A stretch of 64,000 nucleotides of DNA, from NCBI GenBank assembly GCA_020632395.1, contig JACKFQ010000002.1, positions 83,662 to 147,661 on the forward strand. Reading direction: 5' to 3'. Of the stretch, positions 642 through 23,185 are shown in pieces. The stretch's first letter is position 1. Each line of letters starts with the position of its first letter. Both the position numbers and the translations under genes were made by a program. This DNA is from Candidatus Nomurabacteria bacterium (GTDB lineage Bacteria; Patescibacteriota; Dojkabacteria; SC72; JAHDCA01). The notes beneath the pieces are model-generated. The model searched no databases. It had not been told where the DNA came from and saw only the letters and a list, made by a program, of their open reading frames with translations.

Positions 642-670
642 ATTTTAGAAAGGTTAGTTTAAAAATCTCG

Positions 671-701
671 CATAACGTTTCCCGATGAAGCGAAGTTTTG
701 C
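671..701. repeat. Cassette-junction conserved block 1, copy A (cATAACGTTtcccgATgaagCGAAGTTTTGC)
   Basis: One of seven related 30-35 bp elements, one in each intergenic region of the 0.2-5.6 kb array. They share the palindromic core ATAACGTTA followed by ATAT and GAAGTTTTGC. Confidence 0.7.
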
Positions 702-764
702 AAATTCCTTATGTAAATTAATATTTATTGGCAAAATTTGGACGGAGAAAACAATAAATTAATT

Positions 765-1142
765 TTAGCTCCGTAACTTTACTATAGTGTCCTTGAGTTT
801 CTTCATCAAATCGTCTTTATCGGTATATTCTATAAATTTATCAGTCACGATTTTTAGTGAGCTAGATGTTCTTTGTCCTGAATGATAAATACAAATAATT
901 GGACACTTTGACAAATCAGCCCACCCAAGCTCGATTCCCAGGCCTGTCGATGGATAAGAAACCTCCGCGATCATTAAGTCGCATGTCTTTATTATATCTC
1001 GCGTTACAAAATCACTAGCGTCTTCATAGGCTTCGTGCGGCAAGATAATTTCATGCTCCGTGTTCAATAAGCTTGAACGAATTGGTTCATATAGCTCTTT
1101 TTCAAAATCGTAATCGGTAGAGTGTCCAATATATATTTTCAT
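765..1142 (-). CDS. Nucleoside 2-deoxyribosyltransferase-like protein (flavodoxin-like fold)
   Basis: Motif STGLGIELGWA resembles the NDT catalytic-Glu motif (G-T-x-x-E-x-G-x-A). Size is 125 aa. Confidence 0.55.
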   Translation of the reverse strand: MKIYIGHSTDYDFEKELYEPIRSSLLNTEHEIILPHEAYEDASDFVTRDIIKTCDLMIAEVSYPSTGLGIELGWADLSKCPIICIYHSGQRTSSSLKIVTDKFIEYTDKDDLMKKLKDTIVKLRS

Positions 1143-1228
1143 AGAAGAGGGGATAAGATTAATTTATTGTTTTATGTAGTCGCATACACATTGTTAGATG
1201 ATGTGACATAATGGATATGGAGTCATTT

Positions 1229-1260
1229 CATATAACGTTAGCGTGTATGCAAAGTATGCC
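1229..1260. repeat. Cassette-junction block 1, copy B (catATAACGTTAGCGTGTATGCaaagtatgcc)
   Basis: Shares the ATATAACGTTAG core. Its stem portion GTGTATGC has an inverted partner GCATACAC at 1182-1189, followed by attGTTAGAT. Confidence 0.65.
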
Positions 1261-1401
1261 TAAGAACGGAACTGATATTATCTTCTCAAGATTTAAGCGA
1301 ATAGGCAAATTGGGGCGAGCCATTTTTAGAAATCAGTTGCACTGGACACGACAAAATGGCTCACAGCATAGCTGCTGTTGTGTGATGTAAAAAGAAAAGC
1401 G

Positions 1402-1794
1402 CTATATGCTCTTCATCTGAATCATTTTTGCCATTGCTATATATAAAACAAGACCTACCGAATAAATGATAATATAGGGGGCAATGGCAATCCAACGGTT
1501 AATGTAAAACAGATCAACATTTTGAAATGATCTTTCTATTGTCGAACCTACTACAAAAAAACTAAGAGCAACTAATGTATTGAGTAGAATTGTAAAATAC
1601 TGCCTACTGTCATCAACATGTATTAACTTTGTAATGAAGTAAGCTATTACGATATAAGCAATGGCAAAAATGCTCGTAATTGGCAATTGCAAAATCCATC
1701 TGCCATCTGAAGGAACATTTAATAACACATAAATTGTGTTTGCCACAAGAATTATCAAGAAACTAATGATAACTGAATTTGCAATTGTTTTCAT
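1402..1794 (-). CDS. Small integral membrane protein (about 4 TM helices), function unknown
   Basis: Hydrophobic segments fill most of the 130 aa ORF. Confidence 0.5.
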   Translation of the reverse strand: MKTIANSVIISFLIILVANTIYVLLNVPSDGRWILQLPITSIFAIAYIVIAYFITKLIHVDDSRQYFTILLNTLVALSFFVVGSTIERSFQNVDLFYINRWIAIAPYIIIYSVGLVLYIAMAKMIQMKSI

Positions 1795-1846
1795 ATGGGT
1801 TTGTTATTAAATAGTAGTAGCATTTTACCATTTCGTTTTGTTTCGT

Positions 1847-1874
1847 ACAACGTTATGGATATGCGGAGTTTTTC
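1847..1874. repeat. Cassette-junction block 1, copy C (acAACGTTATGGATATgCGgAGTTTTTC)
   Basis: Core AACGTTAT plus GGATAT and AGTTTTTC, matching the other junction copies. Confidence 0.6.
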
Positions 1875-1929
1875 TGGAACGTACTGGAGTGAAAGCGCTA
1901 GTGTACCCTGGAGTTTGTCCTTCAACCCG

Positions 1930-2448
1930 TTACTTCTCATCAAGATAAGAATTAATTGCTTCATCAATAATCGTAATATCTTTGATTTTTTTACTTTCAG
2001 GATTTTTACTAAATTCTTTAATCCATTCAATACAGTCATCAATATTTTCAACAACTAAATCAGAAAAGGTCAATAGAAAAGGATGAATCCAATCATCGAT
2101 TTTTGTACCATCAAAAACAATATTTGATCTTCTATGATGTGTATCTTTTGGAATTATTGAAATTACAGGTCTTTTGAAATATTTTGCAATTACCATTTCT
2201 TGAGCAGTTCCAGCTCCAAGTTTCTTCTTAGAATCAACGATGATAATATCTGCTGTTTTTACGAGATTAGAATCATGACCAACTAATTGCAAAGGTTTAG
2301 TTTCATCTTTCCATGCATCACCATCTGTAATTTCAACATTGGGAATTTTTGAAAGTTTTTCTTTGTATTCAACTTTCCAATCTTTCCAATTTTCTCTAAC
2401 ATCATCTCCTTTTGGTATTGAACCTAATAAAAAATTTTTAAGCGTCAT
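1930..2448 (-). CDS. Nucleoside 2-deoxyribosyltransferase-like protein, second paralog
   Basis: Motif KLGAGTAQEMVIAKY resembles the NDT active-site region. Size is 172 aa. The ORF-track entry 1791..2054 is an overlapping shadow ORF. Confidence 0.5.
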   Translation of the reverse strand: MTLKNFLLGSIPKGDDVRENWKDWKVEYKEKLSKIPNVEITDGDAWKDETKPLQLVGHDSNLVKTADIIIVDSKKKLGAGTAQEMVIAKYFKRPVISIIPKDTHHRRSNIVFDGTKIDDWIHPFLLTFSDLVVENIDDCIEWIKEFSKNPESKKIKDITIIDEAINSYLDEK

Positions 2449-2510
2449 ATATTTTGTGAAAATCCTTTATAAATTAAATCTTATTCTTCTAATGGTTGTA
2501 GGGTAAATTT

Positions 2511-2543
2511 CATTTAACGTTCCTGCGTATGCGATGTTTTTGC
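2511..2543. repeat. Cassette-junction block 1, copy D (catTTAACGTTcctgcgTATgCGatgTTTTTGC)
   Basis: Degenerate copy of the junction core. Confidence 0.55.
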
Positions 2544-2550
2544 GACCAAC

Positions 2551-2645
2551 GGGAGCAAAAATATGGGTGAAGCCCGAGCCGAGGGCTGAACCGTATATCC
2601 CTTGTTATACGCCCCGACGACAGAAAGGAGGAGAGCGCAGCGTGG
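2551..2645. repeat. Cassette-junction blocks 2-3, copy D (about 95 bp)
   Basis: About 90% identical by eye to 4401-4494. Contains the CGTATAtcccttgtTATACG hairpin and GGAGGAGAGCGCAGCGTGG. Confidence 0.75.
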
Positions 2646-2774
2646 CTTGAGTTCAAAAAATATTTTTCGTTCTGATTCATCAGAGAGGCTTTCGGTTATT
2701 TCTTATAAATTTGATTTTTTCGTTTTTCTTTTTCCAAGAGGGGTTAGGGATGAATTGGAAAAAATAAAAACTCC

Positions 2775-3440
2775 TTATTCTTTTTCATTAATAACAAACC
2801 ATTCTCCTTCACTAATCACTTCAATTTTGTTGTCAATAATCTTTAATGCAGAATCATCATCAAGTGCATAAATTGTTTTGCTTATTTCTTGACCAACTTT
2901 TTCTATATTTTCTCTTCTCATTTTTTTAAACCATTCAGAATTCAAATGTGGCAAGAAATAAAAATCTACAAAGTTTAAACCTTTTAATTCTTCAGTTTCA
3001 AGCATATCTTCTTCATAAATCACTTGGGATAATTTCAATGCTAAATCAGGATTAGTAACCATACTTCCAGCAGAAACACCAACATAAACTTTATCTTTAA
3101 ATAAATCAGACAACATTTCAGATAAACCTGATTTATTTAGCCATCTCATTAGATGATAAGTATTTCCTCCTTCAAAAAACAAAACATCAGCTCTTTCTAA
3201 ACTCGGTTTCCATATTTTTTCATCAACAGCTGAAATATCAGTAATTTCAATTGATTTGAAATTTTGTTTTTTCAAATTCACTAAATCAGTAATTAGCCAA
3301 TCTTTATCGCCCGATTCAACATTGCTTGCAGTAGGAATAAAAACAACTGTTGTTTCTTCTGGTTTCTTTCCAGTTAATTCAAACAAAGCATTGGCAATTG
3401 AATTGTTTGTTAGTCCGCTTGATGTTAATAGTAGTTTCAT
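2775..3440 (-). CDS. Peptidase E / S51-family dipeptidase
   Basis: LLLTSSG ... FIPTAS ... FFEGGNTYHLMRWL ... VYVGVSAGS match S51 peptidase motifs. Size is 221 aa. Confidence 0.8.
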   Translation of the reverse strand: MKLLLTSSGLTNNSIANALFELTGKKPEETTVVFIPTASNVESGDKDWLITDLVNLKKQNFKSIEITDISAVDEKIWKPSLERADVLFFEGGNTYHLMRWLNKSGLSEMLSDLFKDKVYVGVSAGSMVTNPDLALKLSQVIYEEDMLETEELKGLNFVDFYFLPHLNSEWFKKMRRENIEKVGQEISKTIYALDDDSALKIIDNKIEVISEGEWFVINEKE

Positions 3441-3604
3441 AATAGTAGGAGTAAAGAATTAAAATTTATAAATCAATCGTTTTCGGAACGAAGTGGAGAA
3501 AACACATTATTATCCCCCTCTTTTATTTTAGAAAAAATCAAATTTATTCCCTTTTTAGAAAGCCTATTTTCATTATTCATCTTAGAAAAATATTTTTTGA
3601 ATTT

Positions 3605-3638
3605 CACATAACGTATCCGAATATGAGAAGTTTTTTGC
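3605..3638. repeat. Cassette-junction block 1, copy E (cacATAACGTATCCGaATATgaGAAGTTTTTTGC)
   Basis: Junction core. A possible partner arm CGGATAatcagtGTTATAC lies at 3785-3803, just before the stop codon of the upstream gene. Confidence 0.6.
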
Positions 3639-3813
3639 CGGATTTCCCAGTATTTATGTACAGTTTAGCACATTCGTTCGACATTTGAATATGCTTTAAT
3701 TGATCGCCATTCGTAGGCAAAAAATTTGGATGGAATGAAAAAGACAAGTCCTTAAATTATTCAAAAGTGTCTTTTTCATGGAACCGGATAATCAGTGTTA
3801 TACGAGAGTTGAA

Positions 3814-4341
3814 TTAAGCGGCTCCTAGCAGTTTCAACATTTTCTCAGACCAATCAGTATTGCCCTTTGTTATTTCCTCCTTGAAAAATTTTATCATCAG
3901 CTGTTTTGGCTCATCCGATATTGCACAGTGCTTAATTTCTGGCCAAAATTCACGATACCATAATCCGATATTATCATGTTTTAAGTCGCAAGCACCGCCA
4001 TTTGGATCAGGTTCAATAAACAAAATCCTGTCTACGTGATTTGTAACAGAAGCTCCCAAGCATTGAATACAAGGTTCAAGCGTACTGTATAGAGAGACAA
4101 TTTTTGAATTATCCTTACGAACTTCCGCCAGCTCTTTGCCGTACTTAATTATTAGAGAATTTTCGGCATGATTCACAAAGGATTTTTGTTTATTGATTTC
4201 GTTGCCAGCGACGCCAAGCGTTTTATTATTGATAGCCAAAACAGCCCCCACAGGATAGTTCCCAAGCTTGAAAGTTTCTCTAGCAATACTGATGGCCGAC
4301 TCCAAGCATTGTTTATCGAATTGTGTTATTTCTTGCACCAT
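3814..4341 (-). CDS. CMP/dCMP-type (cytidine/deoxycytidylate family) zinc deaminase
   Basis: HAE (VNHAENSL) and PCxxC (LEPCIQCLG) zinc-binding motifs. Size is 175 aa. Confidence 0.75.
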   Translation of the reverse strand: MVQEITQFDKQCLESAISIARETFKLGNYPVGAVLAINNKTLGVAGNEINKQKSFVNHAENSLIIKYGKELAEVRKDNSKIVSLYSTLEPCIQCLGASVTNHVDRILFIEPDPNGGACDLKHDNIGLWYREFWPEIKHCAISDEPKQLMIKFFKEEITKGNTDWSEKMLKLLGAA

Positions 4342-4360
4342 ACAGAGCTTAATTCAATTT

Positions 4361-4391
4361 CATATAACGTTAGGGATATACGAAGTTTTGC
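4361..4391. repeat. Cassette-junction block 1, copy F (catATAACGTTAGGGATATACGAAGTTTTGC), the best-preserved copy
   Basis: ATATAAC-GTTA-GGGATATACG is the reverse complement of CGTATATCCC-TT-GTTATAC at 4442-4460, with a 2-nt versus 4-nt bulge. Confidence 0.75.
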
Positions 4392-4400
4392 GGAGTGAAA

Positions 4401-4494
4401 CGGAGCAAAATTTGGGTGAGGGGCGAGCCGAGCACCGAACCGTATATCCCTTGTTATACGCCCCGACGACCAAAGGGAGGAGAGCGCAGCGTGG
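4401..4494. repeat. Cassette-junction blocks 2-3, copy F
   Basis: Near-identical to 2551-2645. Contains the right arm of the attC-like inverted repeat. Confidence 0.75.
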
Positions 4495-4516
4495 TTCGTG
4501 GCGATAGCCGAGAAAG

Positions 4517-4553
4517 TCAGAAGTCGGCTTTTTTCTTTTTTATGAGCGCACAC
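4517..4553. repeat. Left arm of an imperfect inverted repeat flanking the methyltransferase gene
   Basis: TCAGAAGTCGGCTTTT ... TGAGCGCACAC are the reverse complements of AAAAGCCGACTTCTGA and GTGTGCGCTCA at 5425-5464. This arm abuts the stop codon. Confidence 0.7.
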
Positions 4554-5381
4554 CTATTTTTTCTTAACAATTATCATCATATGTCCACTTAAATCAACAA
4601 TTATTGGATCGGTGCAAATTTTGTTATGAATGGCTAACCAATTTTTCCATGCTTTTGGATATTTCTTTGCAAATTTATTTGTCGCTTCAGGATTTACATT
4701 TAAGCCTTCAAGACCCACTTTCTCAAGAATTTGCACATCTTTTTTGGTAAAAATGGACTCAAGCTCTGATGAGGTAAAATAATGACAATAGCCATCTCCT
4801 CTCCATTTATAATCTTCACCATCAGATACCAGTCCCTCGAAATGCTTTTTGTAAACTACTTCTTGTGGCCAACCAAGAGGAGTGGCTAGGAGTACCCCAT
4901 ACTTGCTCATTACTGAAACAAAAATTAAAGCACCCTTTTTTGCGACTCTAATTAATTCGTCAATTGCTTTTAGTCTTTCGGATTCTGGGCTGACATGAGA
5001 GAGTGGTCCGCCCAAGCACAATACTACATCAAAAGAATTATTTTCAAATTCAGATAAGTCTGTAATAGACCCCTCTACAATATCTTTAATTTTTGTTTGT
5101 ACCTTTGCTTTTTTAATTTGTTCCCTAGCAAGTTCTAGGTGTTCTGTGACCAAATCCAGAAGAACAACATCATATCCCATTTTTGCCAATTCAATTGAGT
5201 ATCTTCCGGGACCACCACCTGCGTCAAGAATTACTCCAGATTTTGGAAGATATTTTTTTAGGAATTTTATTGATGTGTCAAATTCTATTTTATGAAAGGG
5301 GTCTTGTGCTAATCTATTCCATTCATAAAGAGCATCTTTTTTGTAATTCTTTTTGGTTAGTTTTGTAGTCTTGTTTGCCAT
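4554..5381 (-). CDS. Class I SAM-dependent methyltransferase
   Basis: Motif I VILDAGGGPGRYSIELAK with the acidic residue at VVLLDL. Size is 275 aa. Confidence 0.8.
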   Translation of the reverse strand: MANKTTKLTKKNYKKDALYEWNRLAQDPFHKIEFDTSIKFLKKYLPKSGVILDAGGGPGRYSIELAKMGYDVVLLDLVTEHLELAREQIKKAKVQTKIKDIVEGSITDLSEFENNSFDVVLCLGGPLSHVSPESERLKAIDELIRVAKKGALIFVSVMSKYGVLLATPLGWPQEVVYKKHFEGLVSDGEDYKWRGDGYCHYFTSSELESIFTKKDVQILEKVGLEGLNVNPEATNKFAKKYPKAWKNWLAIHNKICTDPIIVDLSGHMMIIVKKK

Positions 5382-5424
5382 AATAATATTGTAAAGTATA
5401 AATGATTTATAATTGTTGTGTTAA

Positions 5425-5464
5425 GTGTGCGCTCATTCCTTCTTAATTAAAAGCCGACTTCTGA
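5425..5464. repeat. Right arm of the inverted repeat flanking the methyltransferase gene
   Basis: GTGTGCGCTCA ... AAAAGCCGACTTCTGA. A 16-nt and an 11-nt perfect reverse-complement match to 4517-4553, with different spacers. Confidence 0.7.
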
Positions 5465-5466
5465 TT

Positions 5467-5500
5467 GCGTATAACTCGTTACTATACGAAGTGTTTTCGC
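5467..5500. repeat. Cassette-junction block 1, copy G (attI-equivalent position next to the recombinase)
   Basis: gcGTATAACtcGTTActATACGAAGTgTTTTcGC lies between the first array gene and the divergent tyrosine recombinase gene. Confidence 0.6.
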
Positions 5501-5590
5501 AATTTGTACAGAAATGCATATACTATGCGAACAGTTTCTGACAAAATAACTCTAAACTAATTATCAATATCATCTCATAAAAAACAACAA

Positions 5591-6403
5591 ATGAAAAAAG
5601 AAATTACAGCAACTGTACGAGAATTAAAAATTCGCAATTACAGTTCTAAAACAATAAAAAGCTACACTAGTGGAATTCAAAAATACTTTCGGTTCAAGAA
5701 AAATAATTTCCAACAGCTAGATATCCACAATATACAAAACTTTTTACTCTCCTGTTCAGATAAAGGACTGTCTGCTAAGACAAGAGATCTATATTTGAAT
5801 TCAATTAAATTCTATTACCACAACGTCATTAAAACTTCAAAAAAGGTAGACATCAAATCTGCAAAACAAAATAAAAGTCTCCCTGTTATATTGAATCGCA
5901 AGGAAATCACAAAGTTGAGTGAAGTCATAAATAACCCCAAACACAAATTAATCATCTTGCTAGCATATGGAGCAGGATTAAGAGTTAGCGAAGTCGTCAA
6001 CTTAAAGGTCAAGGACGTAGATATTGATAATCTCACACTCCATATTAAGAAAGCCAAGGGGAAAAAGGATAGAATTACTATTATCCCAGAAAAAATTAAG
6101 GATGATCTGAAATTGATAATTAATTCAAGAGATCAAAACGAATATGTTTTTACAAGTGAACGAGGAGGAAATCTTACAACTCGTACTGCACAAAAGATTT
6201 TTACTAATGCTCTGAAAAAAGCAGGAATTAAGAAGGAGACGACATTTCATTCACTACGCCATAGCTTTGCAACTCACTTACTAGAAAACGGAGTTGATAT
6301 CAGATATGTTCAAGAATTACTTGGTCATCAAAATATTAGAACCACACAAAGATATACTCAAGTTACAAATCCGAAACTAAAAAACATTAAAAGTCCCCTC
6401 TGA
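5591..6403 (+). CDS. Tyrosine site-specific recombinase (XerC/XerD/phage-integrase family, 270 aa)
   Basis: Box I LRVSEV, box II HSLRHSFAT, catalytic Tyr in LGHQNIRTTQRYTQV. About 91 residues separate the box I Arg from the box II His, matching the Xer spacing, so no IntI-type insertion. Confidence 0.9.
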   Translation: MKKEITATVRELKIRNYSSKTIKSYTSGIQKYFRFKKNNFQQLDIHNIQNFLLSCSDKGLSAKTRDLYLNSIKFYYHNVIKTSKKVDIKSAKQNKSLPVILNRKEITKLSEVINNPKHKLIILLAYGAGLRVSEVVNLKVKDVDIDNLTLHIKKAKGKKDRITIIPEKIKDDLKLIINSRDQNEYVFTSERGGNLTTRTAQKIFTNALKKAGIKKETTFHSLRHSFATHLLENGVDIRYVQELLGHQNIRTTQRYTQVTNPKLKNIKSPL

Positions 6404-6561
6404 AAAGAAACATTTTCTAAGACTCGAACCCAATTATTAGAGTTATATAGGCATTCTTGCTTATGGAGTGATATTTACCTTACTTTGCGTCATTTCTACG
6501 AACTGCAAGATTAGTCCGCTGTATAAGGCTTTTAAAATGCTGAAGAAAAAGCTGACCTAAC

Positions 6562-6711
6562 TGGTCGGGGAGACAGGACCATCTCGGCAAACATGCCTCG
6601 ATGTATGATGCAGAATAATTCTACTGCATCATAGGTCCCTGCAGTAGGTTCAAGTCCAAATACACCATCCATACAGAGTAAACGACCACCTAACGGTGGT
6701 CATTTACTCTG
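6562..6711. repeat. 150 bp module at the 3' end of tRNA-Pro(CGG); duplicated at 22862-23012
   Basis: Nearly identical to the copy at 22862-23012. Begins with GTCGGGGAGACAGGAC, a 16-nt direct repeat of the tRNA 3' end. Contains the hairpins TGATGCAG/CTGCATCA and GACCACC-TAAC-GGTGGTC. Confidence 0.8.
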
Positions 6712-6785
6712 TCGGGGAGACAGGACTTGAACCTGCGACCTCTGCAACCCGAATGCAGCGTTCTAGCCATCTGAACTACTCCCCG
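6712..6785 (-). tRNA. tRNA-Pro, anticodon CGG
   Basis: Manual cloverleaf: acceptor CGGGGAG/CTCCCCG, D-stem GTTC/GAAC, anticodon arm CTGCA-TTCGGGT-TGCAG, T-arm GCAGG-TTCAAGT-CCTGT, discriminator A. Length 74 nt with no encoded CCA. Confidence 0.85.
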
Positions 6786-6875
6786 AGTACAATATTTCTC
6801 TTAGGTATATCTGGCAAATGAGCCTTATAATAACAACTTTACGAACGTAGTACTATATACGAATTCCACTATCCA

Positions 6876-12533: not shown

Positions 12534-15500
12534 ATGGTGTCCAAAAGTAAACAGAAAAAACGATCAAAAAACAAACAGTTCGAACTAAGGATGATACTTT
12601 TGGGGATTGTATCACTCACTCTGTTTCTAGTTTCCTTACTCATATATCTCTATAAAAGTGAGTCGATAATTGATAAATACAACATCATTGCAAGTGATTT
12701 CTCTGACAGTTCCTTCTCAATATCCTTCAGCACATTACAACCTAAGTATTTTCAAGCAGTCCTTTTAACCGAAGGAGAGGGGATCTCAAAACTGATATCT
12801 TCAAAAGCTACATCAGAGACTGAAGATATCAGGATCATCGAAAGAGTTTCTGATACTTTCAAACCCGGATATTATACCCATTATTACACATTCAAAAAAA
12901 TAGATCCTAATGAGAGCTATCGGGTCGCATTAAAGGACTCTACGGGGAGATTATGGAAGACTGATAAAGTTATCTTCCCAGAGGATTGGGAGGAGAGACA
13001 TAAGGTTCAGAAAGGTGACTCTGATCCATTGCCACTTTCAGGTTCTGTATCCTATGAAGGTGAATTTGTTCAAGGTGCATTGGTTTATGCAACATATAAT
13101 GGCATTACGATCTCAACGATCACAGCTGAAGAAGGTAAGTTCGTTTTAGAAGCTGCAAAATTTGGTTTACACGGATCTGACTTTGAAGACACACTGTCAA
13201 TACCTATAAACGTAGACCTATCATATCTAGGTGGCTACGACACCTCACTCACATACACCACAGAAGAACTTAGTAGTAGGACAGAAAAAGATCTAGGACT
13301 CATCTGGAGTACAAGAAGTATGGACTGGGGATCAGATATCATGCCGAAGAAAAAAAGTGAAAATCTTCTTGTCTCAGAGGTCTATGCCTGCTCTGCCGGA
13401 CAAACAAGGATCTGTCGCTCTGATACGAGTCGTGGGAGAGCTTGTTTACCAGGTAGTACCTGTGCATGGGAGGTCGATGAAGAAGGTTACCCTATCATCT
13501 GTTCATGCACATCACAAAGCTCAGGTTCCTCTGGTACTGCTGGAAATTCGACATCAACATCAGCTCCTGACATGTCTAACGCCGGATGGGAGAATGGTGT
13601 ACCGGAGGTTGGAGGGAGTACACCTCTTGATAGTCAGCTATGTGAATATAAATGTTCGGTAGCATGCTCGTCAGAGCACTCTGATGGAAATTGGTATGGT
13701 CAATGTGGTAACCCCGACAAAAGCGATGCAGGTATAGACACTTGCACTTGTATAAAGCTCGAGGGAGAGATGAGTAGCTATACAACACCAGCATATGACC
13801 CTAATCAGTTCGGTTCTGGGCAAGGAGGTTTCAATTGCCCAGCTGGTCAAGATATCTATGTGTCAAAGCCCGGGGTGATTTTTTGTGTACCTGCAGATGC
13901 ACCTAAGGTAGGTTACAAGGTCGACCCATCTTTAGTACAGATATTCACAGCGATCAAAGAGGCGATCGAGTCTGTCGGGGTCAAGGCTGGACTGATCACG
14001 GGAGGTTTTGGAGGAGGAGGAGGATCATACACAACTGACAAAAGTGGAAGACCCGTCATAAGGTTAGATTGGAATGAGCCGAATGTTGCATTAACAGCTG
14101 CTCATGAAGCGATGCACCAGGCTGGTGATCAGGCAGCCTCTTGTTATAGGAGTTTACCCGTGATACATAAAGAATTTTGTGCAGATTACTGTTCCTTGAG
14201 CACACCCTTAGAGATTGGTTATGCATTTAAGTATAAAGGATCCTATAGACTTCCAATGGAGATCGCTTCAGAAGAGTGGTATGGAGGTGAGACAGATCTG
14301 GATGCGATAAGAAATAGTCAACGATATAAGAATGACTGCCTAGATCCTGACGGTATGTGCCGAGGAGGAATATGCGACATTGTGAATAAGGTGAATATAA
14401 CAGATGTTGTAGGGAGACGTTACGCACAAACCCATAATGAATACAGTGACGGTGTGAGGGGTTTGGAATATGTGGGGTCTGGAATAAAGAGGAATTGGAA
14501 TCTACCAGATGATGATACTGTAGGAAGCGATGATCCTGCGATCTCTGAAACAGATACTTTCGATCCTGATCGTGATGAACCTGCATCAAATGAAGCTGTT
14601 TCTAATACAGACACCCCGGTTTGTACCTATGAAGAGGTGGGAGAGATCATTTATGAATTTAAGAATGCATACTATTACGAGATACTCAGTAGTATGCCAC
14701 CAGGTACAGAAGTCGATACAGAGGACCTGTTAGACTGGTTGTTAGAAAAGATCACAGATTACTATGGTTATGATCAGAACAAAGCGCAGTGCATAATTGA
14801 TCATCTTGACCAGTACCCAAATCTACTGCATTTTGATTCGTTACTTGTTTGGGATGACACAAAAGATGCTTATATAGTGACCACAAACAGTATGGGTTTT
14901 GCTGATTTTGCAGGATTGATAGAGAATGGATTTGATTTGCTTGATCCTTCAGATCTAGACGAGCAAACAAGTTATTCCTTGCCCGCTATACCGAGAGTAG
15001 ATACCTCTGGACTTTATGAGATCTATTCAGCTTTTCCAATCGATTACGATTCCGAGACAGGATCATTTTTGATCAGTTACGATCCGGATGTAGAAACTCA
15101 ATCGGAAAGTCTGTTGCAGAAAGCTTATGCAAGCGAACCGACTGTTCATCAGATCGACCCTTCCAATGCAAAGATGTTTCTATTTACGGATACAAATGAG
15201 AATCAAAAATACGATCCAGAGGGAGAGCAAATCGAGAAATTTGCAGGTATACCTATCATAATAAAACGGGCGCCCGAACAAACCCAACATAGCTATCAAT
15301 TGAACAAGGGTTTGAACATGATAGCGTTTCCTTTCGAAGCTGAAAGTTTTACAGCAAAATCACTATTAGATAAAATAAACACACAAGGTGGAGATGCAAC
15401 AGAGATATCCACGATACGAGATGGTACCTGGCAGGTTTATAAGAAATCCAAATTTGTAGATTACACATATAAGGACTTCCCTATTGAGATCGGAAAAGGA

Positions 15501-22861: not shown

Positions 22862-23012
22862 CTGGTCGGGGAGACAGGACCATCTCGGCAAATATGCCTC
22901 GATGTATGATGCAGAATAATTCTACTGCATCATAGGTCCCTGCAGCAGGTTCAAGTCCAAATACACCATCCATACAAAGTAAACGACCACCTAACGGTGG
23001 TCATTTACTCTG
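22862..23012. repeat. 150 bp module at the 3' end of tRNA-Pro(GGG); second copy
   Basis: Near-identical to 6562-6711, including the 16-nt direct repeat of the tRNA 3' end and both hairpins. Confidence 0.8.
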
Positions 23013-23086
23013 TCGGGGAGACAGGACTTGAACCTGCGACCTCTTGCACCCCATGCAAGCGCTCTAGCCATCTGAACTACTCCCCG
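23013..23086 (-). tRNA. tRNA-Pro, anticodon GGG
   Basis: Identical to the 6712-6785 tRNA except in the anticodon arm: CTTGC-ATGGGGT-GCAAG here versus CTGCA-TTCGGGT-TGCAG there, and one D-stem base. Confidence 0.85.
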
Positions 23087-23185
23087 ATAAGGATATTGTA
23101 CATTATGAGAACGAAAATAGTAACAGGAAAAGGGCTGTGTGCCCTTTTCAAGAAATATGTTAATAGTAATGAGAGCCAATAATTA

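Follow-up and report, generated by a model that had tools for sequence, protein, structure and literature searches.

A Probable Integron-Like Gene-Cassette Array Beside a Xer-Like Recombinase Gene in Candidatus Nomurabacteria

Seven minus-strand genes at the left end of a 64,000-nucleotide stretch from a Candidatus Nomurabacteria bacterium (Dojkabacteria; assembly GCA_020632395.1, contig JACKFQ010000002.1, positions 83,662 to 147,661; hereafter the window) are each preceded by a copy of a near-palindromic element built around AACGTT, and the question raised by this locus is what such an element does there. The original prediction, made from the letters alone, took it as a possible operator for a dimeric regulator or, alternatively, as a recombination core. 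Our analysis indicates that the region 664–5500 is very probably an integron-like gene-cassette array, in which each junction is an attC-type recombination site, served by a Xer-like integrase without the I2 helix of integron integrases.

The Junction Element

Seven plus-strand junction elements, here termed J1 to J7, were found, one upstream of each of the seven minus-strand open reading frames (ORFs), with the C of the (A)AC core at positions 676, 1236, 1851, 2518, 3612, 4368 and 5475; the distance from this C to the start codon is 27–172 nt over all seven junctions. The palindrome is too degenerate for string searches: ATATAACGTTANNNATATA has an exact match at position 4362 only, up to three mismatches yield 4 matches against 1.4 expected in the window, which is not significant and covers 2 junctions only, and the pattern AYAACGTW (9 matches against 5.5 expected) is uninformative alone. 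Hidden Markov models (HMMs) of the two modules described below, trained solely on sites of other genomes, were run over the whole 64 kb. On the plus strand the 5' module was matched at 668, 1227, 2509, 3603 and 4359 (E ≤ 0.0025) and at 1842 (E = 0.22), with J7 (5463–5500) as a seventh, variant copy beyond the six found by the HMM (668–4386). The 3' partner module was matched at 2588–2611, 3781–3805 and 4437–4460 (E < 0.001), weakly at 1366–1387, and as an orphan at 1181–1203. No module HMM match below E ≈ 0.7 was obtained in the rest of the 64 kb, and iterating the module HMMs did not enlarge the site set.

The degenerate consensus of the junctions, TTTCAyaTAAC/GTTn(3-5)TATryGAwGTTTTkC, is strongly non-random. 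The element predicted at the seven minus-strand starts is therefore real, as judged by the HMMs, but its literal strings are rarer than had been claimed: AACGTT is present in 5/7 junctions, and GAAGTTTTGC, the string said always to follow it, is exact in only two of the seven (692 and 4382), with degenerate versions elsewhere.

Architecture, Folding and Covariation of the Sites

The palindrome is part of a larger element, of which it forms the 5' half only, the 3' module having been overlooked. Written on the plus strand, the "bottom" one for genes that run on the minus strand, the full site is TTTCAyaTAA↓C-GTT(n), an 11-nt L' (..TATAyG), AwGTTTTGC..hairpin..GCAAAAwwTGGG..second hairpin..GAAC, an 11-nt L'', T and GTTRyny (the arrow marks the crossover point discussed below). 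The distal 3' half (L''-T-GTTRRRY) lies 56–185 nt from the 5' (R'/L') half and pairs with it, and each ORF has such an attC-type site on its 3' side. Integron attC sites have the same R''-L''...L'-R' layout, with cores like RYYYAAC and GTTRRRY. Within such a site the palindrome corresponds to the R' and L' arms together, and GAAGTTTTGC forms the base of the first terminal hairpin.

Repeat finding showed that J4 and J6 share an 88-nt block (2558–2645 and 4407–4494, 89% identical) containing GAACCGTATATCCCTTGTTATACG, which is complementary to the junction core. Folded as single-stranded DNA, positions 4358–4464 of J6, the site of cassette 1 (4355–4463, plus strand like all the sites; C 4368, R'' GTT 4453) gave −18.8 kcal/mol (z = −3.5), with a 6–7-bp R stem (TATAAC/GTTATA), an asymmetric GTT/T loop, an 11-bp L stem (AGGGATATACG/CGTATATCCCT) and two terminal hairpins; the L stem pairs at 11/11 positions and the R stem at 6/7. 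A strict structure scanner (AAC...GTT, 7-bp R stem, L stem ≥ 9.5/11), which revealed the (4,1) spacer asymmetry, recovered J6 alone in the window, and minimum free energy folding of J1–J5 did not recover the attC fold.

The other sites are less regular. J5 (3599–3807; C 3612, GTT 3797; HMM 3603–3631 and 3781–3805) is of a long type of about 200 nt with an L stem of 7/11 ungapped, and it is 75% identical over 208 nt to positions 1525–1722 of the related locus L003, where it follows a different gene. J4 (2506–2614; C 2518, GTT 2604; HMM 2509–2537 and 2588–2611) pairs its L' and L'' at 6/11 positions plus 2 G.T, its 3' module being a near copy of that of J6 and mismatched to its own L' arm; J4 is chimeric, which suggests that two attC sites recombined homologously and that the cassettes between them were lost. 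J2 (1224–1387; C 1236; HMM 1227–1255, E = 0.0025, and weakly 1366–1386) carries the R'' box GTTGTGTGATG at 1377–1387 and pairs at 8/11 positions plus 1 G.T in the L stem and 5/7 in the R stem. For J3, represented by its 5' module (1841–1875; C 1851; HMM E = 0.22), neither folding nor a partner search gave a convincing 3' partner, which is degenerate or lost, and for J1 (5' module 664–700; C 676; HMM E = 0.0006) none was recognisable in the partner search. The orphan 3' module (CGCATACACAT-T-GTTAGATGATG, 1181–1203; HMM E = 0.024) lies 20 nt to the left of J2, whose L' (GTGTATGC) it complements; it lacks a 5' module of its own and may be what is left of a cassette that was lost or had no ORF.

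Covariation was analysed over 33 sites from 14 genomes, which are related to one another, so that the following statistics overstate independence. In the 32 unique sites, the L' and L'' 11-mers vary between sites and are complementary within a site, cognate halves pairing at 9.44/11 positions against 6.52/11 for non-cognate ones (0/2000 permutations as high). In the alignment of the 33 trimmed sites, 86% of cells are paired, 10/11 L-stem pairs have changes on both sides, and the covariation score is 0.439 against 0.198 ± 0.017 in shuffles (0/500 as high) and at most 0.126 in slid registers. Since L' and L'' differ between sites yet stay complementary within each, folding of the site is under selection. 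Mismatches on the plus strand are G.T/T.G rather than A.C/C.A in 44 versus 20 cases overall and in 19 versus 6 in the L stem (binomial p 0.004; p ≈ 0.03 after base composition, a rough, uncomputed estimate over related sites), a bias that is supportive rather than decisive for the plus (bottom) strand being the one that specifically folds. The sites thus share imperfect inverted repeats, AAC/GTT cores and a structure conserved over sequence, the features by which integron attC sites are recognised; their sole conserved asymmetry is GTT(n) versus T between the R and L stems.

Crossover Point and attI-Like Site

When the reverse complement of R'' at one junction is set against the 7 nt preceding AAC, it matches 5.30/7 positions at the following junction, compared with 3.88 at its own and 3.65 at random ones; in the window, the reverse complement of the J6 R'' box (GGCGTATAAC) matches the left flank of J7 (TGCGTATAAC). 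The palindrome is therefore composite, its left arm deriving from one cassette and the rest from the next. Such linkage is expected if circular cassettes are inserted by crossing over at AA↓C, or G↓TT when written on the coding strand, and comparison of X1 and X2 in L003 also places the crossover left of the C. Both marks of circular-cassette insertion, a G↓TT crossover and an R' flank taken from the neighbour, are accordingly present.

J7 (TTGCGTATAA↓CTCGTTACTATACGAAGTGTTTTCGC, 5463–5500, plus strand; predicted crossover between 5474 and 5475) is an attI-like site. Beside the recombinase gene, eight loci share AA↓CTCGTTACTAT(A/C)CGAAGTGTTTTCG, and all DNA left of AA↓C differs. The right half of J7, from AA↓C onward, is kept in L001, L002, L003, L086–L089 and L090–L096, with a lineage-specific left side. 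The metagenome contigs L090 and L095 share 99.97% identity across the 6,025 bp right of AA↓C but have unrelated sequence (27%) to its left. Moreover, a 150-nt cassette leader, 90% identical in the two places, abuts the attI-like site in L090 and an attC in L003, the similarity stopping at AA↓C. The AA↓C breakpoint and the L090/L095 polymorphism mark the site beside the recombinase gene as the primary insertion point, as attI is next to intI. A metagenome scan with the attI right half returned 7 contigs only.

These results bear out the second option of the original prediction: the AAC/GTT core contains the crossover point, and the two ATAT-containing arms are best read as the R and L recombinase-binding arms.

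In a search for a cassette promoter (Pc), minus-strand candidates were found at 5510–5481 and 5424–5395, while promoter-like matches overall were at chance level. In L001, L003, L086, L088 and L089 a conserved extended −10 element (TGGTATAAT or TGATATAAT) lies about 45–60 nt upstream of the recombinase start and is probably the recombinase promoter; the version in the window, around 5545–5560, is weaker.

The Adjacent Recombinase

The putative cassette integrase is a tyrosine recombinase of 270 aa (5591–6403, plus strand; Pfam Phage_integrase, 6e-45), transcribed divergently from the array. It scored 232.8 bits against the NCBIfam model NF040815 (XerA/integron-integrase; cutoff 220) and 212.8 bits, in 2 stretches, against TIGR02249 (integron integrase), below the cutoff of 265. 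The best PDB sequence match was Vibrio IntI4 (2A3V, E = 8e-45), followed by archaeal XerA (1e-43), with XerD far behind, and Foldseek likewise ranked 2A3V first and XerA next. The alignment with IntI4 falls in two pieces, query residues 175–196 (22 aa) standing opposite IntI4 residues 179–243 (65 aa, the I2 region), whereas XerA (4A8E) aligns in one piece. An AlphaFold2 model (pLDDT 84) has no helix in 179–196, only short strands, and no insertion at the I2 position was found in any of 89 relatives. R131, K156, H220, R223, H246 and Y255 are invariant in 29 homologs, so that the protein has the RKHRH-Y catalytic residues and the lack of insertions of a Xer-type recombinase. By sequence and by fold it is IntI/XerA-like, without the IntI-specific I2 domain. 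No second tyrosine recombinase was found in the 64-kb window.

Occurrence in Other Genomes

Proteins of about 270 aa related to this recombinase form a very large family in Patescibacteria (Candidate Phyla Radiation, CPR), including WWE3, Dojkabacteria, Pacebacteria and others. As in the window, several unrelated genes on the minus strand follow one another upstream of the recombinase in related loci. In 9 loci with 10 kb on both flanks, about 46 plus-strand module matches lie upstream of the recombinase and 1 downstream, and the array of L003 has ten junctions with both modules. The combination of a family recombinase, an adjacent attI-like breakpoint and an array recurs in at least 12 CPR loci. 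Many relatives' contigs, including the closest at 84–85% identity, end 100–450 nt upstream of the recombinase, as would be expected of a repetitive, strain-variable region. ORF-less mini-cassettes of about 190 nt with a variant site (ATAAT↓GTGCTTCGG...) were noted in L003 (5710–5870 and 6833–6990) and L086 (40–200); immediately to the left of the following crossover they have a hairpin, and CCGAAGCAC-ATTAGAT is present as an alternative distal partner.

More distant, insertion-less relatives (38–44% identity) in Spirochaetia, Saccharibacillus and Paenibacillus have the array downstream of the recombinase and co-oriented with it. In L034 (10780–12892; Saccharibacillus kuerlensis DSM 22868, NZ_KB899282.1) and L032 (10800–11827; Paenibacillus sp. 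NFR01), both 44% identical, an attI-like site (TTATAAC↓GTCTTATTTACGAA..) follows the recombinase, and repeats of about 100 nt, resembling the Vibrio cholerae repeat (VCR) type of attC, lie between co-oriented small ORFs. L034 has three such repeats, with perfect linkage of R'' to the next R' at all junctions; both contigs end within the array. In L072 (5742–10078; a Spirochaetia metagenome-assembled genome), six attC-type sites stand downstream of a relative of 38% identity and co-oriented with it, and L043 (about 13385–13470) was noted with it.

Proposed Mechanism and Points Against It

The reading of 664–5500 as a cassette array rests directly on the two-module sites, the L-stem covariation, the linkage of R'' to the next R', the AA↓C breakpoint, the cassette polymorphism between near-identical strains, the co-occurrence with the recombinase and the absence of I2 from the latter; from these we infer catalysis by this recombinase, a single-stranded substrate and the exchange of one strand only. 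In the proposed mechanism, the single-stranded site would fold by pairing of R' with R'' and of L' with L'' into a two-armed tyrosine-recombinase core, in which the GTT(n)/T loop forms an asymmetry next to the point of cleavage. Bound to the two arms of this folded bottom strand, R (TTTCAyaTAA) and its inverted counterpart L (..TATAyGAAG), the 270-aa enzyme encoded divergently from the array would cleave TAA↓C at the A–C step and exchange one strand between the folded cassette site and the double-stranded attI-like site at 5463–5500. Circular cassettes would thereby be inserted beside the recombinase gene, and replication would presumably then resolve the intermediate, as it does for integrons and CTXphi. 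A second strand exchange is blocked in classical integrons, where the extrahelical bases are docked by I2 (PMC7790495); here the GTT(n)/T loop may disfavour a lethal second exchange, like the central-region bulge of CTXphi attP(+).

Several points weigh against this interpretation. The recombinase lacks the IntI-specific additional domain (I2 helix, patch III), and the mechanism of canonical integrons would therefore have to be altered to apply here. Most L stems are perfect duplexes (20/32 pair at 10–11/11 positions ungapped), without the extrahelical bases of integron attC sites; such bulge-free stems match the absence of I2. The recombinase family is 60–85% identical across CPR classes, as for a housekeeping Xer. 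L002 has the recombinase and the attI-like site with no detectable attCs. The metagenome contigs L093 and L096 have the attI-like site without the recombinase gene: about 100 nt of recombinase leader follow the site, then tRNA-Pro and recA, and we regard them as a recombinase-less variant of the platform. Finally, J6 is the sole intact hairpin in the window, J2, J4 and J5 pairing at 6–8/11 positions and J1 and J3 being without a recognisable partner, and the array here may be largely fossil.

The last point has a spatial pattern. J6, the attC nearest to attI, is the most intact (11/11) and the distal sites are decayed or chimeric; this gradient, together with a GC content of 35% in the array versus 40% in the rest of the window, fits insertion at attI followed by ageing. 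We thus regard the array as an integron-like variant and not as an integron sensu stricto: the site-level features of integrons are present, whereas the I2 domain and the extrahelical bases are not.

Alternative Explanations

The alternative that survives best, though we consider it improbable, is that the recombinase is a housekeeping single Xer, the adjacent site the chromosomal dif and the genes modules of the pdif type or of integrative mobile elements exploiting Xer (IMEX), recombining at double-stranded dif-like sites with no folding. The protein is indeed Xer-like, insertion-less and highly conserved, candidate-phyla recombinases fall in the Xer-related "Cand" subgroup (Smyshlyaev et al., PMC8138268), the 5' module and the attI-like site each hold a dyad CrTATA-N9/10-TATAyG resembling a two-armed core site, and the 64 kb contain no other tyrosine recombinase. 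Double-stranded sites, however, have no need of a distal complementary copy, yet L' and L'' covary strongly, with G.T exceeding A.C on one strand; double-strand exchange between junctions would be blocked by their differing central regions; and no consistent GC-skew switch was seen at the site in the 10 loci and the window compared. A dual role is possible, in which attI is dif and serves both dimer resolution and cassette capture.

Still less probable is that the sites form a cluster of attC sites lacking integron-integrases (CALIN), whose true, I2-containing IntI is elsewhere or lost, the adjacent Xer-like gene being coincidental. The failure of the recombinase in the defining IntI test and the recombinase-less L093 and L096 would fit. 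Against coincidence stand the adjacency of recombinase, attI-like breakpoint and array in the 12 or more CPR loci, its recurrence with inverted geometry in Spirochaetia, Saccharibacillus and Paenibacillus, the finding of the I2 insertion in 0/89 relatives, and the lack of a second tyrosine recombinase in the window.

The operator of the original prediction, by which a dimeric regulator on the palindrome would co-regulate seven independently transcribed genes, appears highly improbable. A dyad-symmetric core does stand upstream of every gene, and the observation that no convincing sigma70 promoter fits it was upheld: sigma70-like sites are not enriched, and none falls consistently on the motif. 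An operator or promoter-proximal element would be expected at a fixed sequence and position relative to promoters, independent of its neighbours and with a cognate regulator. Here the left arm is cassette-specific and follows the neighbouring cassette through the R'' box of the previous site, the centre covaries with a partner 56–185 nt away, the spacing to ATG ranges over 27–172 nt and the same site type stands after different genes. As for the co-occurring regulator that had been suggested, no regulator gene is adjacent, and across genomes the element travels with the tyrosine recombinase whatever the genes of the array.

Least probable of all are intergenic terminator hairpins or repeats of the repetitive extragenic palindrome (REP) or miniature inverted-repeat transposable element (MITE) kind, unrelated to site-specific recombination: hairpin sites do lie 3' of each ORF and several cassettes have extra inverted repeats, but terminator-like sites (5 versus 3.1 expected) are neither enriched nor coincident with the sites, and such elements cannot yield the linkage of R'' to the next R' or the AA↓C breakpoints. 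A group II intron domain V was also considered for GAACCGTATAT...TATACG and rejected on inspection, there being no 14-bp bulged helix with a GNRA loop.

Relation to Known Systems

The cassette array proposed here most resembles sedentary chromosomal integrons such as the Vibrio cholerae superintegron (VCR attC, IntIA/IntI4). Shared features are a divergent tyrosine recombinase beside attI, co-oriented and mostly single-ORF cassettes, R''-L''...L'-R' attC sites with AAC/GTT cores and conserved structure, a crossover at G↓TT (AA↓C on the bottom strand), an R'' that matches the start of the same cassette, and IntI4 as the nearest solved structure to the recombinase. It differs in having 22 aa in place of the 65-aa IntI4 region with the I2 helix, in its 11-bp, mostly perfect L stems, with the asymmetry residing in the GTT(n)/T loop at the cleavage point, in an attI-like site that resembles the attC 5' module, and in its host, Patescibacteria.

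With the IMEX-type integration of CTXphi by XerC/D at dif, the array shares an I2-less Xer-type recombinase, integration beside a fixed chromosomal site, a single-stranded element in which two inverted half-sites about 60–200 nt apart fold into a core site with an imperfect central region, and (as we infer for the array) a single strand exchange resolved by replication. Unlike CTXphi, which brings phage genomes and relies on XerC plus XerD, it consists of promoter-poor gene cassettes stacked in arrays, has integron-type AAC/GTT cores and is accompanied by one adjacent recombinase gene. The pdif modules of Acinetobacter plasmids, bounded by XerC/D sites, are likewise small gene modules between Xer-type sites without a dedicated transposase, but they are flanked by inverted double-stranded 28-bp sites with no structured, covarying hairpin, and they form no ordered, co-oriented arrays beside a recombinase gene.

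Platforms outside Proteobacteria are known from the inverted integrons of Spirochaetes (Treponema denticola type) and from archaeal integrons (Ghaly et al. 2022). The Spirochaetia (L072) and Paenibacillaceae (L034) arrays described above resemble the inverted type in being co-oriented with, and downstream of, the recombinase. The Treponema integrase carries the IntI-specific additional domain. So do the integrases of archaeal integrons (PMC9668308), unlike the proteins found here.

IntIs are defined by this additional domain, which is considered essential for attC recombination and regarded as the key innovation relative to Xer (PMC9668308, PMC8138268, PMC7790495), and candidate-phyla recombinases have been treated as Xer substitutes (PMC8138268). 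Surveys with IntegronFinder report no integrons from CPR genomes and, for Firmicutes, just "a few CALIN" (PMC9024848). A literature search on integrons or attC sites in CPR/Patescibacteria, of incomplete coverage so that earlier work may exist, found no description of these arrays. We incline, with little more than even confidence, to a second, widespread integron lineage in which I2-less Xer/XerA-like recombinases act on folded attC hairpins, common in Patescibacteria and with relatives in Spirochaetia, Paenibacillaceae and possibly Flavobacteriaceae.

If this is correct, hairpin-cassette capture does not need I2 or predates it, and the I2-less lineage would be either the pre-I2 ancestral state postulated for integron origins, a speculative scenario that would become testable, or an independent solution. 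It would also mean that present integron finders, which require the I2 domain, miss such arrays or label them CALIN, and that the ultra-small CPR genomes, in which the ways of gene turnover are little understood, possess a gene-capture platform. Many attC clusters reported without an integrase, possibly including the few in Firmicutes, may have one. Cultured carriers (Saccharibacillus kuerlensis DSM 22868 and Paenibacillus sp. NFR01) make experiments feasible.

Cassette Genes and Other Features of the Window

Counting from attI, and with all ORFs on the minus strand, cassette 1 (4368–5474) encodes a methyltransferase dependent on S-adenosylmethionine (4554–5381; Pfam Methyltransf_25/11; a mad2-like PADLOC match of 57 bits) and cassette 2 (3612–4367) a CMP/dCMP-type deaminase (3814–4341; Pfam dCMP_cyt_deam_1, 1.6e-14). 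Cassette 3 (2518–3611) carries a peptidase S51 (2775–3440; Pfam Peptidase_S51, 4e-32), of which a 30%-identical homolog occurs within the L003 array. Cassette 4 (1851–2517) holds an ORF of 172 aa with no family match (1930–2448), cassette 5 (1236–1850) a small membrane protein (1402–1794) and cassette 6 (676–1235) a weakly nucleoside 2-deoxyribosyltransferase-like ORF (765–1142; Pfam PF05014, 3.5e-4, below cutoff). The NUDIX hydrolase gene (204–641; Pfam NUDIX, 3.8e-22) is the last recognisable cassette or a flanking gene. No module HMM match was found in 1–203, left of this gene. A partial minus-strand ORF with a nucleotidyltransferase-like motif (GSGSEVLGFDTERSTDHHWGP) runs off the left edge (1–95), and no recombination site separates it from the NUDIX gene. 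The array, partly degenerate in this window, therefore has no defined left boundary and is truncated by the window edge. For the cassette proteins, PADLOC gave two weak domain-level matches only, and no Rfam family was found within the array.

Inside cassette 3, the peptidase ORF is flanked by imperfect inverted repeats of about 110 nt (2650–2765 and 3475–3603), with exact 17-mers at 2652–2668/3585–3601 and 2705–2721/3531–3547. The right repeat is the cassette "leader", 81% identical to positions 70–274 of L017, and a similar leader occurs in L003 and L090. A conserved extension of about 35 nt past the R'' box was noted at 2611–2645 and 4460–4494 (GCCCCGACGAC..GGAGGAGAGCGCAGCGTGG), with related strings after attC sites in L003 and L001.

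Over the whole window, promoter and terminator scans were both at chance level. Many of its ORFs are without a family match, and it contains a bacterial class A RNase P of unusual length. Judged by these features and by the relatives of the recombinase, the host belongs to the CPR. A 228-nt block, 96% identical, occurs at 6561–6786 and 22862–23087, each copy holding one tRNA-Pro gene (cgg and ggg, respectively) plus about 150 nt; at both genes a 16-nt direct repeat of the tRNA 3' end (GTCGGGGAGACAGGAC) borders the additional segment, which looks like a miniature element integrated in the 3' end of both genes.

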